A stretch of DNA of 64,000 nucleotides from the NCBI GenBank assembly GCA_027623195.1, contig JAQBUT010000011.1:1-64000 (forward strand). The letters run 5' to 3'. The first letter of the stretch is position 1; the number at the start of each line of letters is the position of its first letter. Positions 2,274-8,075 of the stretch are shown in pieces. Both the position numbers and the translations under genes were made by a program. Below the pieces are notes generated by a model. It did no database searches. It saw only the letters and a list, made by a program, of their open reading frames with translations, and had not been told where the DNA came from. This stretch comes from Chloroflexota bacterium. GTDB lineage: Bacteria > Chloroflexota > Dehalococcoidia > Lucifugimonadales > JADFKI01.

Positions 2274-3380
2274 ATGGACGATAATGTGCACCTTCAGCGG
2301 ACTCCACTCTACGATGCCCACGTTAAACAGGGTGGTAGACTGGTGCCCTTCGCCGGATGGGAAATGCCTATCCAGTACACGGGCATTCTCGATGAGGCCA
2401 GAGCAGTAAGGTCCTCCGTAGGCATTTTCGACGTGTCGCACATGGGGCGCTTGGAGATTTCTGGGTCCGGCGCGGCGAATCTTCTTAATAGGGTTTTGAG
2501 CGTTAACGCGTCGGCCCTTAGGCTTGAACGCGCCCGATACAACGTCATTTGCGACGAGTCCGGTGGCATAATTGACGATTGCATTGTTTACCGCAGGTCT
2601 GAGGAGATGTTTCTGCTGGTGCCCAATGCCTCCAATACGGATTCCGTTCTCCAATGGTTGGCCCGCTGGAACGAGCCTGATGCCGGAGTGGCCATCGTAA
2701 ACGTTACGTCTGAATCGGCGATGATCGCGATACAGGGGCCAGACGCGGTCGGCATGGTGGACGGTCTATGTGATATAGATGCGTCCGCAGTGAGGCCCTT
2801 CGCCACGGTGAAGGCTTCGATTGGGTCGAGCCAAGTGTGGCTGGCACGTACGGGCTACACTGGTGAAGACGGCTTCGAAATCATCGTCCCCGCTGATAGC
2901 GCAGGGGAGCTTTGGAACGCCCTTGCGAGTGCAGGAGCGACGCCTTGCGGCCTGGGCGCTCGGGATGTTCTCCGCCTGGAGGCTGGACTTCTCCTGCATG
3001 GAAACGAGATGGATACGGGCGTCAATCCTTACGAGGCAGGACTGGACCGGTTCGTCGACCCAGATAGAGACGGTTACGTGGCAGGTCCGGTGCTAAATCG
3101 ATTAAAGAAGGCGGGATTATCCAAAAGACTGGTTGGATTTGTCCTTACCGGAAGAGGCGGCATTCCCCGACACGGTTACGCTATACTGGGTGGCGCTGAA
3201 AGCATTGGAATCGTAACCAGCGGTGTGCACTCCCCGACCCTGGATTGCAGCATCGGAATGGGTTACGTTGGCATCCAATATGCTGATCCCGGCACCGTCA
3301 TTCAAATTGACATCCGGGGCCGGATAGTCGACGCTGAAGTAACAGAATTGCCATTTTATTCACGGAGAAGAAGCGGATGA
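2274..3380 (+). CDS. gcvT: Glycine cleavage system T protein (aminomethyltransferase)
   Basis: RTPLY...FAGWEMP, FDVSHMG, RTGYTGEDGFE, GLGARDVLRLEAG motifs. Confidence 0.97.
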   Translation: MDDNVHLQRTPLYDAHVKQGGRLVPFAGWEMPIQYTGILDEARAVRSSVGIFDVSHMGRLEISGSGAANLLNRVLSVNASALRLERARYNVICDESGGIIDDCIVYRRSEEMFLLVPNASNTDSVLQWLARWNEPDAGVAIVNVTSESAMIAIQGPDAVGMVDGLCDIDASAVRPFATVKASIGSSQVWLARTGYTGEDGFEIIVPADSAGELWNALASAGATPCGLGARDVLRLEAGLLLHGNEMDTGVNPYEAGLDRFVDPDRDGYVAGPVLNRLKKAGLSKRLVGFVLTGRGGIPRHGYAILGGAESIGIVTSGVHSPTLDCSIGMGYVGIQYADPGTVIQIDIRGRIVDAEVTELPFYSRRRSG

Positions 3381-3763
3381 ATCCTGCGGAACTTAAGTAT
3401 TCTGAAGAGCATGAATGGGTCCAGGTTGAGTCGGAAACGGTAGTGCTGGTTGGCATAACCGAGTTCGCTGCCGAAAGCCTTGGTGACGTTGTCTACGTGG
3501 ACCTGCCAGAGGTTGACGCTAACGTTGGGCAGTTTGAGAAGATGGGTGAGATAGAATCTGTTAAGGCCGTCTCTGACCTATACTCGCCTGTAAGCGGCAA
3601 GATTACCGAGCGCAACGAGCAGGTGTTGGACAACCCTCAGCTCGTTAATGACGCTCCCTTCGAGGGTGGTTGGCTGATTCGTGTGCTCCTAGACGACCCG
3701 TCTCAGCTGGACAAGCTAATGTCTGCCTACCAGTACGAGTCTTTCCTGGCGTCCCAAGACTGA
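3377..3763 (+). CDS. gcvH: Glycine cleavage system H protein
   Basis: YSEEHEWV and lipoyl-lysine motif IESVKAVSDLYSP. Confidence 0.97.
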   Translation: MNPAELKYSEEHEWVQVESETVVLVGITEFAAESLGDVVYVDLPEVDANVGQFEKMGEIESVKAVSDLYSPVSGKITERNEQVLDNPQLVNDAPFEGGWLIRVLLDDPSQLDKLMSAYQYESFLASQD

Positions 3764-3770
3764 TCTGGAC

Positions 3771-5102
3771 ATGCCGATGGACTCACACGGTTTCGTATCT
3801 CCTTACAGCCCCAACACGGATAGTGATAGGCGGGAAATGCTGGACGCCATAGGCGTCGACTCAGTCGAGGAACTGTTTGAAGACATTCCCGAAGCCTACC
3901 GACATCCGCCGCTGAATCTGCCCCCTCCCAAGTCCGAGATGGAGCTTCTTCGCTACGCTGAGGAGTTGGCCTCTATGAATGGCGTTCCGGGCGACTACGC
4001 CTGTTTTCTGGGCGCTGGCTCGTACAGGCACTACGTTCCAGCGATCGTGCGGCAACTGACTAGCCGCAGCGAGTATGTGACTTCGTATACCCCCTATCAG
4101 CCCGAGGTTTCTCAGGGCACGCTACAGACCGAGTTTGAGTTCCAAACCCTCTGCGCTCAACTGACCGGCATGGACGTTGCCAACGCTGGCATGTACGACG
4201 GGGCCACGTCGCTAGCTGAGGGGGCGTTGATGGCCGTACGCGTAAACGGAGGCCGACGGATTGCCGTGCTGGATAGCGTGTCGCCGAGGTATGTCGAGGT
4301 GCTGGAGACGTATACCAAATCTCAAGGCATCGAGATCGACATTATTTCCGCCGATAACCTTACTTTGGCAGACGACACCGCATGCCTCCTGGCGCAGCAG
4401 CCCAATTTCTACGGCTACCTGGAGGACATGCAGGCCATAGCCGATAAGGTACACGAGCAGGACGCCCTGTTTGTCGTCTACGCCGATCCTTTCGCCATGG
4501 CCTTGTTCAAGCCCCCGGGTGAGTACGATGCGGACATTGTGGCATCGGAGGGGCAGGCGCTGGGAGTTGCGCCGACTTTTGGAGGACCGTACGTCGGCAT
4601 CTTCGCCTGCAAGCAGCAGTACATACGGCAGATGCCCGGACGAATTGTGGGCCGGACTGTGGACTCAGATGGCAAGATTGGCTACGTCCTCACGTTGCAG
4701 ACTCGCGAGCAGCACATCAGGAGGGAGCGCGCCACATCCAACATATGCACATCGGTGGCCTTGATTGCGCTAATGTCTACGGTGTTCATGGCAGCCAACG
4801 GCAAGAAGGGCATGCGTCACCTGGCTGAGTTGACCTATCACAAGGCCCACTACCTGGCGTCGCTAATAGAGAGAATACCTGGCTACTCCCTGCGCATGGA
4901 CGGAACATTCTTCCAGGAGTTCGTTGTTGAGTGCCCAATCTCACCCTCAGAAATCAACGACAAGCTGCTTTCTCAGAAGATCATAGGTGGTCTGGACGTG
5001 AGCGACATGGTGCCCAATGGAATGCTGGTATGTGCTACCGAGGTGAACTCTCGCGAAGAGATTGAGGCCTTCGCCCACGCGTTGGCAGAGGCGGTCGCCT
5101 GA
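3771..5102 (+). CDS. gcvPA: Glycine dehydrogenase subunit 1
   Basis: YTPYQPEVSQG, MYDGAT, REQHIRRERATSNICT. Confidence 0.97.
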   Translation: MPMDSHGFVSPYSPNTDSDRREMLDAIGVDSVEELFEDIPEAYRHPPLNLPPPKSEMELLRYAEELASMNGVPGDYACFLGAGSYRHYVPAIVRQLTSRSEYVTSYTPYQPEVSQGTLQTEFEFQTLCAQLTGMDVANAGMYDGATSLAEGALMAVRVNGGRRIAVLDSVSPRYVEVLETYTKSQGIEIDIISADNLTLADDTACLLAQQPNFYGYLEDMQAIADKVHEQDALFVVYADPFAMALFKPPGEYDADIVASEGQALGVAPTFGGPYVGIFACKQQYIRQMPGRIVGRTVDSDGKIGYVLTLQTREQHIRRERATSNICTSVALIALMSTVFMAANGKKGMRHLAELTYHKAHYLASLIERIPGYSLRMDGTFFQEFVVECPISPSEINDKLLSQKIIGGLDVSDMVPNGMLVCATEVNSREEIEAFAHALAEAVA

Positions 5103-6595
5103 TGGCAACGAAGAATCCCCTACAGCTAAAGTACGAAGAGAGCCGCCGTCGTCTTCTTATGGACCGTAGCGTTCCAGGCAGGATGGGCGTTAGTTTGCCT
5201 CCCAACGACGTGCCGGAGCAGCCCATGCCGGGCTCCGACATACTTCGGAACGAAATGGATTTTCCTGAGGTCACCGAAGGCGAGATTGTTCGCTATTTTT
5301 CCCAGTTGAGCCAGTTTAACTTTTCCATAGACCACAACTTCTACCCCCTGGGCAGTTGCACAATGAAGTACAACCCCAAGGTTAACGACGAGGTCGCGGG
5401 TTTGCGGGGCTTCACAGATATCCATCCCCTCCAGCCGGAGTCCACCGTCCAGGGCGCGCTGAAGCTAATGTGGGAGCTCCAGGAGTACCTGGCGGAGATA
5501 ACCGGAATGCCCGGCGTATCGCTAGCTCCTATGGCTGGTGCCGATGGCGAACTGGCGGGCATGCTCATGGCGCGGGCTTATCACCTCGAGCGGGGGGATA
5601 CGCAGCGCACCAAAGTGCTCATTCCGGACAGCGCACACGGGACCAATCCTGCCACGGCAACCATGTCTGGATTTGAAGTGGTCACGCTTCCTTCCGACGC
5701 ACGTGGGGACACCGACCTGGACGCCCTGCGAAACTCCGTGGGCGATGACCTGGCGGGTCTGATGATTACTCTTCCCAGCACCCTGGGTCTGTTCGATAGC
5801 AATATCGATCAGGTAGTCAAGATAGTCCGAGATGCCGGGGGTATAGTGTACGGGGATGGCGCGAACTTGAATGCGTTGCTTGGCCGAGTGCGAATGGGGG
5901 ACTTGGGATTCGACGTTATGCATTCGAATCTTCACAAGACATTTACACAGCCACACGGTGGTGGTGGCCCTGGCTCCGGACCGGTGTTAGTGGGGCCCAG
6001 GCTCTTGCCGTACCTGCCCACGCCTTGGGTCACACGGCGCGCCGACGGCGAAGACGAGACTTTCAGCTTCACCACTCCGGAAAAAAGCATAGGACGCATG
6101 GCGGCGTTCCATGGTAACTTCGGAGCACTGGTCAGGGCTTACGCCTATATCAGCACACTGGGCAAGGAAGGCATAGCGGCCATAAGCGATGACGCCGTCC
6201 TCAACGCCAATTACGTGATGAGTCAGCTAAAGGACGATTACGATCTGCCTTACGACAGGGTCTGCATGCACGAGGTTGTTCTGTCGGCTCGTACACTGAA
6301 GCGCCAGCATGGCGTTAGTGCGCTGGATGTGGCCAAGCGTCTAATAGATTACGGTATTCATCCTCCCACAATGTATTTTCCCCTCATCGTTGAGGAGGCC
6401 CTTATGGTCGAGCCCACGGAGACCGAATCCAAAGAGACTCTTGACTATTTCATCGAGGTAATGAAAACTATAGCGCGGGAAGCCCGCGACGAGCCTAGTC
6501 TGCTGCATGACGCTCCTCACGACACTCCGAATTCACGACTGGATGAGGCCAGGGCAGCCCGTCAGCCCGACCTTCGGTGGCGTCGACAGACTTAG
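5102..6595 (+). CDS. gcvPB: Glycine dehydrogenase subunit 2
   Basis: YPLGSCTMKYNP, SAHGTNPA, PLP-lysine motif NLHKTFTQPHGGGGPG. Confidence 0.97.
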   Translation: MATKNPLQLKYEESRRRLLMDRSVPGRMGVSLPPNDVPEQPMPGSDILRNEMDFPEVTEGEIVRYFSQLSQFNFSIDHNFYPLGSCTMKYNPKVNDEVAGLRGFTDIHPLQPESTVQGALKLMWELQEYLAEITGMPGVSLAPMAGADGELAGMLMARAYHLERGDTQRTKVLIPDSAHGTNPATATMSGFEVVTLPSDARGDTDLDALRNSVGDDLAGLMITLPSTLGLFDSNIDQVVKIVRDAGGIVYGDGANLNALLGRVRMGDLGFDVMHSNLHKTFTQPHGGGGPGSGPVLVGPRLLPYLPTPWVTRRADGEDETFSFTTPEKSIGRMAAFHGNFGALVRAYAYISTLGKEGIAAISDDAVLNANYVMSQLKDDYDLPYDRVCMHEVVLSARTLKRQHGVSALDVAKRLIDYGIHPPTMYFPLIVEEALMVEPTETESKETLDYFIEVMKTIAREARDEPSLLHDAPHDTPNSRLDEARAARQPDLRWRRQT

Positions 6596-6649
6596 TCTCC
6601 ATTGGCTCCCGTGACCGAAACCTTGGAATTTCCTAGTTAGGAGTAAAGC

Positions 6650-7108
6650 ATGGCAGATGTTGGACAGCAGGCGCCGGATTTCACACTTCCAGCGCAAGAT
6701 TCGAGCGCGGTATCGCTCAGCGATTACAAAGGGAAGAAGAACGTAGTTCTCTCGTTCCACATATTCTCATTCACAGGTGGTTGAACGGACCAAGTCTCCT
6801 TGTTCCGCAGGGCCAACGCCCTGTTCGAGGAGAAGGATACCCAGGTTCTGGGTATAAGCAACGACTCCAGGCCGACACAGACGGCCTATTCGATGTCTTT
6901 GGGTAATATTTCTTACCCAATATTGTCGGACTTCCATCCCAAGGGACAGGTGACCAATGCCTATGGGATTTGGAACGAGCAGCGCGGGGCGTCCAACCGC
7001 GCAATCTTCGTAATAGATAAAGAAGGCGTTATCCGTTTCAAGCGGATCTACGACAGCGCCGCCGATCTGGACCCCAAGGACATCCTGGCGGAGATCGATA
7101 AGCTGTAG
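6650..7108 (+). CDS. AhpE-like peroxiredoxin, probable selenoprotein (in-frame UGA at codon 45, 152 aa)
   Basis: SD AGGAG then ATG 6650; MADVGQQAPDFTLP...VVLSFHIFSFTGG-TGA(6782-6784)-TDQ continues in frame into track ORF 6800..7108 (LSDFHPKG..YG, RAIFVIDKEG); the TGA sits at the peroxidatic Cys position. Confidence 0.85.
6795..6833 (+). other. Candidate bacterial SECIS hairpin
   Basis: TCTCCT(6795-6800)/AGGAGA(6828-6833) lower stem and CAGGGC-CAAC-GCCCTG upper stem; the loop begins about 29 nt after the UGA. Confidence 0.55.
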
Positions 7109-7133
7109 GGATTCCTGAGGGTTAGGCAAGTAT

Positions 7134-7177
7134 AGAGGGCCGGCTGAACAATACGCAGACCGGCCCTCTCGTGTTTT
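7134..7177 (+). terminator. Hairpin/terminator after the gcv-peroxiredoxin cluster
   Basis: AGAGGGCCGG...CCGGCCCTCT inverted repeat followed by a weak T tract. Confidence 0.55.
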
Positions 7178-7220
7178 CCAAAATCTGTATGGGCCGCTGG
7201 GACGGTTCTGGAGTAACTAT

Positions 7221-8075
7221 ATGGTGGAAATTAAGGCGCCTTCTCAGCTCTTTGGCGTGGGCGACAAGGTTCTTATACAGGACAAACGAGGTAGGCATTA
7301 CCTCATCACACTGGCCCTATCCAAAAAATTTGAGTCGCATATCGGCGCCTTTCCGCATGAGGACTTGATCGGTCAGGAGGACGGTGCGTGGGTGACCACG
7401 AACAAAGGCCATGTCCTGCTGGCAGTGAAGCCCACCATGGCCGAATATGTCGTTGAGATGCCTCGTATCGCCACCGTTAGCTATCCAAAGGACACTGGAG
7501 CAATTCTTGTGTATGGCGATATCTTTCCGGGCGCTCGGGTGCTGGAAGCGGGCTCCGGCTCTGGCGCGCTAACGATGAATTTGCTTCGGGCCGTGGGTGA
7601 GCATGGCCGGGTGTACTCATATGACTTGCGCGAGGATATGCTGGCCCGGGCCCAAAAGAACGTAGAATCCATGCTGGGAGACGCGCCTAATGTCGAGTTC
7701 AAACAGGGCGACGTCTACCAGGGAATCGACGAAGACGATTTGGACCGCGTAGTCTTAGACCTGCCTGAGCCTTGGCAGGTAGTGCCGCATGCTTCGGACA
7801 AGCTGGCGCGCGGCGGTCTGTTCGTTAGCTTCCTGCCAACCGTTTTGCAAATTCATGAGTTGACCAATGCCCTACGAGAACAACGCACCTTCGAGATGAT
7901 CGAGACTTTTGAGGTTCTCATGAGGCCATGGGCCGTGAGTGGTCGCAGCGTTCGGCCATCGCACAGGATGGTCGGGCATACAGGATTCATTACTACGGCA
8001 CGCAGGTGCGCGCCCCGCCCCTACCCTTCCGCCCTACAGGAAGAAGCGCCGGAAACTGAGGAAACTACTGACTAG
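7221..8075 (+). CDS. trmI: tRNA (adenine-N1)-methyltransferase TrmI
   Basis: MPRIATVSYPKD, VLEAGSGSGAL, LDLPEPW, RPSHRMVGHTGF. Confidence 0.93.
   Translation: MVEIKAPSQLFGVGDKVLIQDKRGRHYLITLALSKKFESHIGAFPHEDLIGQEDGAWVTTNKGHVLLAVKPTMAEYVVEMPRIATVSYPKDTGAILVYGDIFPGARVLEAGSGSGALTMNLLRAVGEHGRVYSYDLREDMLARAQKNVESMLGDAPNVEFKQGDVYQGIDEDDLDRVVLDLPEPWQVVPHASDKLARGGLFVSFLPTVLQIHELTNALREQRTFEMIETFEVLMRPWAVSGRSVRPSHRMVGHTGFITTARRCAPRPYPSALQEEAPETEETTD

Follow-up and report, generated by a model that had tools for sequence, protein, structure and literature searches.

Two conserved mRNA hairpins behind the in-frame TGA of an AhpE-like peroxiredoxin gene of Dehalococcoidia suggest a long-range SECIS arrangement

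Peroxiredoxins with selenocysteine (Sec) in a TxxU motif are already catalogued as a prokaryotic selenoprotein family (PMC13188914, PMC1088965), whose prototype is PrxU of Eubacterium acidaminophilum. The signature proline has been called absolutely conserved in peroxiredoxins (PMC4749874). Two other reference points are AhpE of M. tuberculosis (1xxu; F37H mutant, 5c04), whose thiolate is hydrogen-bonded by Thr42 and Arg116 (PMC4965862), and the Prx6 enzymes (human PrxVI, PfPrx6), which have a single redox residue and a histidine eight residues before it. This histidine is reported to trap the oxidised enzyme and to be needed for fast reduction by HS-, its place being taken by Tyr or Phe in AhpE-type proteins (bioRxiv 10.1101/2025.02.13.638076). 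As for the RNA signal, the bacterial SECIS consensus (the bSECISearch model as given in PMC13188914) requires a G at loop position 1 or 2 and a UGA-to-loop spacing of 16-37 nt, and in a structural study of SelB the conserved G lies some 20 nt away (PMC4605307). Dehalococcoidia rank among the most selenoprotein-rich bacteria in BSepDB, in which 87.4% of 57,630 entries have such a SECIS element and the rest are called uncharacterised (PMC13326102).

Here we compare with these systems a gene from a 64,000-nucleotide stretch of a Chloroflexota bacterium (contig JAQBUT010000011.1, positions 1 to 64,000; hereafter the window). The gene product shares with the catalogued Sec family the TxxU at the peroxidatic site, the domain PF00578 and the existence of Cys homologues, but it lacks the proline of that family's highly conserved PxxxTxxU (PMC13188914, PMC1088965). 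It has the same length as AhpE, is 39% identical to it, likewise has no resolving Cys and retains Thr42 and the active-site Arg, whereas it has a predicted Sec for Cys45, His for Phe37, Ile for Pro38 and Gln for Glu48; the F37H change of the 5c04 mutant is the one that occurs naturally here. It resembles Prx6 in the histidine eight residues before the peroxidatic residue and in the single redox residue, and unlike Prx6 it has no extended C-terminus, no proline and no PVC motif, and its scaffold is AhpE-like. Taken jointly, it is fairly likely that the gene is intact, that its TGA is read as Sec, that it specifies an AhpE-like predicted peroxidase with one selenium, and that a two-part SECIS serves it.

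The list of open reading frames catches only the C-terminal part of the gene, as a 102-aa piece (6800-7108). An earlier note on this DNA proposed that the real gene begins farther upstream behind a Shine-Dalgarno sequence, has a TGA at codon 45 and encodes a 152-aa protein without any Cys, and translation of 6650-7108 bears this out; the TGA is the sole one in the frame. The features are collected in Table 1. gcvPB lies within the fetched flank at 39 of 75 loci and trmI at 53, and 21 loci have none of the window's neighbours. The named relatives are Dehalococcoidia/SAR202 MAGs, and two genomes hold two TGA-bearing copies each, adjacent in G033 (C4:82012-83674) and on C1 and C2 in G039. An Rfam scan of 6550-7250 with E up to 10 returned zero matches, and a promoter and terminator scan of 6400-7300 gave no signal above shuffled sequence.

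Table 1. Positions of the features discussed. Coordinates are those of the window, except in the last five rows, which refer to contigs of the window's genome (G000).
Feature	Position	Strand	Remark
Upstream gcvT-gcvH-gcvPA-gcvPB cluster	2274..6595	+	Context
Shine-Dalgarno-like AGGAG	6639..6643	+	6 nt 5' of the ATG; read from the sequence
AhpE-like peroxiredoxin gene	6650..7108	+	152 codons, one Sec (predicted), no Cys, TAG stop
His37-Ile38 codons	6758..6763	+	Replace AhpE Phe37-Pro38; His at the Prx6-type histidine position
Thr42, catalytic Thr of TxxU	6773..6775	+	Invariant in the alignment
In-frame TGA, predicted Sec45	6782..6784	+	Codon 45, peroxidatic position
Gln48	6791..6793	+	Replaces AhpE Glu48
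Proximal mRNA hairpin	6795..6833	+	Starts 11 nt after the UGA; pairing conserved, apical loop variable (CAAC here, no G)
Distal mRNA hairpin	6837..6855	+	8 bp, loop GUU 6845-6847, 60 nt after the UGA
Arg117, conserved active-site Arg	6998..7000	+	71/71 His-clade metagenome loci
TrmI-like tRNA methyltransferase gene, downstream	7221..8075	+	Context
L224	C3:46883-47251		AhpC/TSA-domain gene with TGA
L227	C53:18073-18435		AhpC/TSA-domain gene with TGA
L228	C65:80027-80392		AhpC/TSA-domain gene with TGA
L232	C1:6135-6446		AhpC/TSA-domain gene with TGA
L233	C56:189632-189991		AhpC/TSA-domain gene with TGA

TGA is otherwise an ordinary stop, as the note had remarked: gcvH, gcvPA and also gcvT end in it, and it closes 255 of the genome's 1428 open frames of at least 300 codons; the genome is therefore not globally recoded. 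The Sec machinery that the note had expected is all present, namely selA (E 6e-136), selB over the cut-off, a selD with an in-frame TGA of its own, and a tRNA-Sec gene with the anticodon UCA. Homologues were read in three overlapping locus sets (30, 80 and 80, summing to 190), in which the aligned codon is TGA at 30/30 loci (the window's own included), 51/80 and 77/80 and is TGC or TGT at the remainder; the stops or decay that would mark a pseudogene were looked for at the site, and TAA, TAG and TGG occur at 0 of the 190 loci. In a comparison that drew on 37 ungapped orthologues, dN/dS to the closest orthologue is 0.11 upstream of the TGA and 0.08 downstream of the hairpin zone. Contigs of four sequencing runs from two studies, one run possibly being the source of this DNA, were examined for TGC or TGT, and all four have the TGA with no other letter. 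The interchange of TGA with Cys, the selection on both sides and the Sec machinery together make Sec the very likely reading, and the aligned codon, the AhpE-like sequence and the predicted fold agree with the single-Sec peroxiredoxin that the note had suggested. Among 61 genomes, the best 54 matches (52 genomes) each have exactly one TGA; selA exceeds the cut-off in 55 of the 61, and in 48 of the 52 with a strong TGA match. The four others are G001, G059 and G060 (74-86% complete) and G042 (95%), and G001 has a TGA-bearing selD fragment.

Could the TGA instead be a true stop that splits or inactivates the gene, an error of sequencing, or a codon for Trp or Cys? Databases do hold the gene as pieces of 44 aa and about 100 aa, and some entries have Trp at the site. 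Such a reading is nonetheless highly improbable, given the 190 of 190 loci free of TAA, TAG and TGG, the purifying selection on both flanks, the agreement of a second study's contigs on the TGA and the ordinary genes of this genome that end in TGA. Moreover, the Trp entry P0003 matches the TGA locus L060 at 60/60 residues around the site and runs past the TGA stop of L060, which points to a gene call with code 4. Trp occupies the peroxidatic position in P0003, P0005, P0007 and about 30 other full-length database proteins, probably through translation of TGA with code 4 on short contigs, as shown for P0003 only. We conclude that the gene is almost certainly intact and its internal TGA read as Sec.

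Several further observations concern this codon and the selenoproteome around it. Of 37 close orthologues, 36 have ACG as the codon after the TGA (6785-6787), a position outside both stems; this synonymous constraint is relaxed in more distant ones. One Sec-type copy (L150:504-956) has an extra in-frame TAG just 5' of the distal hairpin and is a broken copy or a misassembly. In the window's genome, a thioredoxin gene (C46:48105-48676) lies about 180 nt upstream of tRNA-Sec on a contig that also has selA and selD. In five further AhpC/TSA-domain genes (Table 1, last five rows), a single in-frame TGA falls within a redox motif of UxxC or CxxU-like type; a de novo motif scan for the selenoproteome of this genome gave 1758 candidates, mostly noise.

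The protein matches Pfam PF00578 (AhpC-TSA) over residues 4-130 (E 4.5e-33). The earlier suspicion of AhpE kinship proved sound, AhpE being the closest solved subfamily both by sequence (E 2e-30 to 4e-29; next family 7.5e-19) and by predicted fold (pLDDT 97; TM 0.95 and rmsd 1.4 to 1xxu), and the F37H mutant 5c04 is the top sequence match because the protein has His37. In the alignment, the TGA coincides with Cys45 of AhpE, Ile38 with Pro38, Thr42 with Thr42 and Arg117 with Arg116, so that the note's placement of the peroxidatic residue, its replaced proline and its retained catalytic Thr and Arg are all recovered; His37 and Gln48 deviate from AhpE in addition to the Ile38 it had singled out. 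The strict signature Pxxx(T/S)xxC is absent, Ile38 standing where Pro is found seven residues before the peroxidatic residue, and the rest of it (Thr, peroxidatic Sec, distant Arg and predicted peroxiredoxin fold) is there. No NCBIfam model exceeds its cut-off (PrxU, NF040737, 68.3 of 270 bits; Prx-SUH, NF045827, 41.7 of 298 bits). At the Prx6-His position the protein has the His of Prx6 at -8 and not the Tyr or Phe of AhpE, while the extended C-terminus of Prx6 is missing, the 152-aa chain ending after the last core helix. With the strict signature incomplete, the site mixed and no conserved resolving Cys, we call the protein AhpE-like and do not assign it a PREX class.

Judged by the aligned sequences, this odd site (His37-Ile38, Gln48) is clade-wide in Dehalococcoidia and not tied to Sec. 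Position 38 among 127 distinct clade proteins is Val in 68, Ile in 55, Leu in 3, Lys in 1 and Pro in none, and Gln48 is found in 125 of them; the Lys occurs in L068:3001-3456. The His forms make up one supported clade (98/93) that takes 37 of the 63 rows of a tree built from a chosen subset of loci. In the wider AhpE-like group, 141 of the best 150 representatives cover the site, of which 25 have no Pro, 25 have His37 (20 together with Pro, 5 without) and 68 have Gln48. The non-canonical site reported by the note is thus real and clade-wide, but it is not unique, and since the clade's Cys forms and the wider AhpE-like group share the loss of Pro, we reject this loss as an adaptation to Sec. 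Likewise, the absence of Cys holds for this protein and fails as a clade trait: 122 distinct Sec forms have no Cys in only 30 cases, one in 88 and two in 4, and therefore no conserved resolving Cys. One Sec peroxiredoxin, L118, is 260 aa long, its C terminus being extended by a part that by eye resembles a glutaredoxin.

At the same gcvPB-prx-trmI locus, four genomes have a Cys orthologue. All four retain selB over the cut-off and three of them selA, for which reason an origin of the Cys forms through loss of the Sec machinery was rejected. In the midpoint-rooted tree the Sec group and the main Cys group are sisters, a topology compatible with a Sec/Cys exchange in either direction. In a low-GC group (L083, L087, L092 and L093, in G061-G064), Cys occupies the site, both hairpins are lost and the distal-loop codon is mostly Ile, yet the Sec machinery is retained.

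The protein is quite likely to have peroxidase activity. Thr42 and the Arg are kept, and attack of the selenolate on peroxide is therefore likely, while the absence of the 'absolutely conserved' Pro leaves the predicted activity not guaranteed. In the cycle we propose, selenolate-45, held by Thr42 and Arg117, would attack a hydroperoxide, the oxidised selenium would be stabilised by His37 in the manner of the equivalent His in Prx6 enzymes, and, for want of a resolving Cys, the selenium would be restored by an external reductant (a small thiol, HS-, thioredoxin or glutaredoxin). The reductant is the weakest step of this cycle; because the clade has the Prx6 His on an AhpE scaffold, we infer and prefer a His-stabilised selenium that is reduced by a small species. 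The genome encodes two thioredoxins and four glutaredoxin-like matches, and two TrxR-like genes score just below the cut-off. No MshC exceeds the cut-off in this 87%-complete genome, so a mycothiol route is not supported. Lipoyl-GcvH as reductant was discarded, adjacency being its only support and the gene having none of the window's neighbours at 21 of 75 loci.

A Sec protein with this site could instead be something other than mainly a peroxidase, re-purposed as a carrier of selenium or sulfane sulfur or as a redox sensor. Pro38 and Glu48 are replaced throughout the clade, a conserved resolving Cys is absent, and His37 corresponds to the Prx6 His required for the fast HS- reaction and for selenium transfer, human Prx6 with H2Se providing a precedent for re-purposing (bioRxiv 10.1101/2025.02.13.638076). 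We regard this as improbable, for Thr42, Arg117 and the predicted fold are retained, the Cys forms keep the identical His/no-Pro/Gln site, the neighbours are gcv genes and trmI with no selenium-metabolism genes among them, and loss of Pro and Gln48 are each widespread in AhpE-like proteins. Peroxidase remains the preferred assignment.

To describe the RNA downstream of the UGA, the 190 loci were reduced to 136 distinct Sec and 30 distinct Cys segments. In the window gene this region folds better than shuffled sequence (z -3.1 to -3.7). Sec genes have a mean z of -2.23 (control zone -0.67; 74 rows), compared with -0.42 in Cys genes (control zone -0.14; 29 rows). All eight pairs of the distal hairpin (folding energy -9.5 kcal/mol) form in 115 of the 136 Sec segments and in 0 of the 30 Cys segments; synonymous resampling would give 4.1 and 0.8, respectively. 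The distal stem is paired in 97.4% of cells, compared with 20-46% in slid controls, and shows 58 double changes against 16.5 in shuffles. A switch between Ala64 and Thr64 alters the first stem base, and the third base of the Gly68 codon tracks this change in 126 of 134 rows. When the tree is built with the tested hairpin codons removed, about 6 of 7 independent tree pairs show a joint change at the distal pair 58/72 (median p 0.03, compared with p 1 at two control sites); covariation of the pair 63/67 is weaker (median p 0.06). The loop codon is Val (GTN) in 135/136 Sec and 12/30 Cys genes; the QVL peptide fixes several stem and loop bases, and the invariant GU is thus partly protein-coded. 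The distal hairpin is also found in Sec relatives titled Nitrospinota, Chloroflexia and Acidobacteriota. RNAalifold recovers it unaided from the 136-row consensus and does not call the proximal stem. For the latter, 70.9% of cells are paired, double changes number 104 (45.8 in shuffles), and independent tree pairs give a median p of 0.016. Very probably, both hairpins are under selection as RNA.

We then asked which of the two resembles a bacterial SECIS, using an approximation of the published rule and not bSECISearch itself (a loop of 3-9 nt on a stem of 4-16 bp, a G at either of the first two loop positions, MFE at or below -7.5). The distal hairpin has the loop, stem, G and energy of this rule and the proximal one does not. 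It matches the consensus in its 3-nt loop, its 8-bp stem and the GU at the start of the loop, but its loop is 60 nt from the UGA and not 16-37 nt, and the gap is filled by a conserved hairpin without a G loop; the window gene has no qualifying hairpin at 16-37 nt. Under the approximate rule, a hairpin qualifies at 55-66 nt in 126 of the 136 Sec genes and at 16-37 nt in 26, 105 having the distal one only, and 21 of the 26 Sec genes with a G-loop hairpin at 16-37 nt by a looser test also have a distal one. The corresponding counts in the 30 Cys genes are 4 (55-66 nt) and 2 (16-37 nt). When the proximal hairpin is subtracted, the spacing has a median of 21 nt (range 17-40).

The selD genes of this lineage offer a comparison. 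In 30 selD loci, of which 29 could be read (the motif was not found in one), a CAG-GUN-CUG apex lies at 33 nt in 21/29, including that of the window's genome, and a distal hairpin in 0/29. Five of six other TGA genes of this genome have a G-loop hairpin at 16-33 nt (selD at 33 nt, four at 16-21 nt), none being found for the TGA gene on contig C56. A narrow scan of this genome for an apex of the CAG-GUN-CUG type behind any stop gave 13 matches in 29,022 windows, of which selD and the present peroxiredoxin are the only two recognised as genes. Within the peroxiredoxin family, a strong hairpin at the normal distance is found in 3 of 4 Sec genes with fewer than seven distal pairs, compared with 3 of 132 with at least seven; this exchange rests on about 2-3 independent lineages. 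In six loci (L097, L145, L153; L113, L119, L126), a weakened distal hairpin goes together with a G-loop hairpin 16-23 nt from the UGA, and the distal loop of L097 is without its U; from their sequences, these loci would be natural switches between the two layouts.

In the arrangement that we envisage, about 10 nt of mRNA would occupy the entry path of a ribosome paused at the UGA, and the proximal stem, which begins at +11, would stay folded. It would thereby take about 39 nt out of the spacer and leave the distal loop effectively about 21 nt away, within reach of the winged-helix domains of SelB, which would bind the GUN-loop hairpin 60 nt downstream. An elongated SelB that spans 60 nt is not supported, the SelB frame having 620 aa compared with 624-641 codons in other SelB frames. 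The opposite allocation would make the proximal hairpin, with an atypical and tolerated loop, the SelB site, and would leave the distal hairpin as a pause, mRNA-stability or SelB-preloading element. In its favour, the proximal stem begins 11 nt 3' of the UGA and puts the loop at the usual place, near 29 nt; the hairpin is itself under selection for pairing, and some bacterial SECIS elements are said to deviate from the consensus (PMC13188914). However, the proximal loop varies in length and sequence and begins with G[G/U] in only 11 of 136 Sec genes, the SECIS apex of the lineage's selD reappears in the distal hairpin and not in this one, and genes with a weakened distal hairpin mostly have a normal G-loop hairpin instead. 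We therefore consider a proximal SelB site unlikely, and the distal hairpin is probably the binding site. A long-range SECIS with a ruler hairpin, in AhpE-like Sec peroxiredoxins of Dehalococcoidia and relatives in Acidobacteriota, Nitrospinota and Chloroflexia, is in our judgement a reasonably likely description of the whole.

The use of Sec by a peroxiredoxin is known, and the RNA layout with its displaced hairpin is the less ordinary part. BSepDB entries may include this gene; one BSepDB supplement makes no mention of peroxiredoxin, Prx, AhpC or canonical SECIS. In the full-text literature available for searching (PMC12013277, PMC7026636 and PMC8113037 included), outside which subscription journals largely lie, neither a distal bacterial SECIS with a looped-out spacer nor the His/no-Pro/Gln active-site variant is described in what we found.

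If true, the arrangement would give bacteria a second SECIS layout, and it could account for some of the selenoprotein genes in which a canonical SECIS is missing. SECIS finders should then take the spacing after folding, and selenoprotein engineering could shift the SECIS away from active-site codons. With covariation behind it, Cys genes as internal controls and natural reversions to the usual layout, the family offers an alternative that a simple reporter could test. The enzyme, for its part, would be a natural hybrid of AhpE and Prx6 with a His-stabilised oxidised selenium, and the clade would be a natural test of the 'essential' Pro and of a Prx6-type His on an AhpE scaffold.
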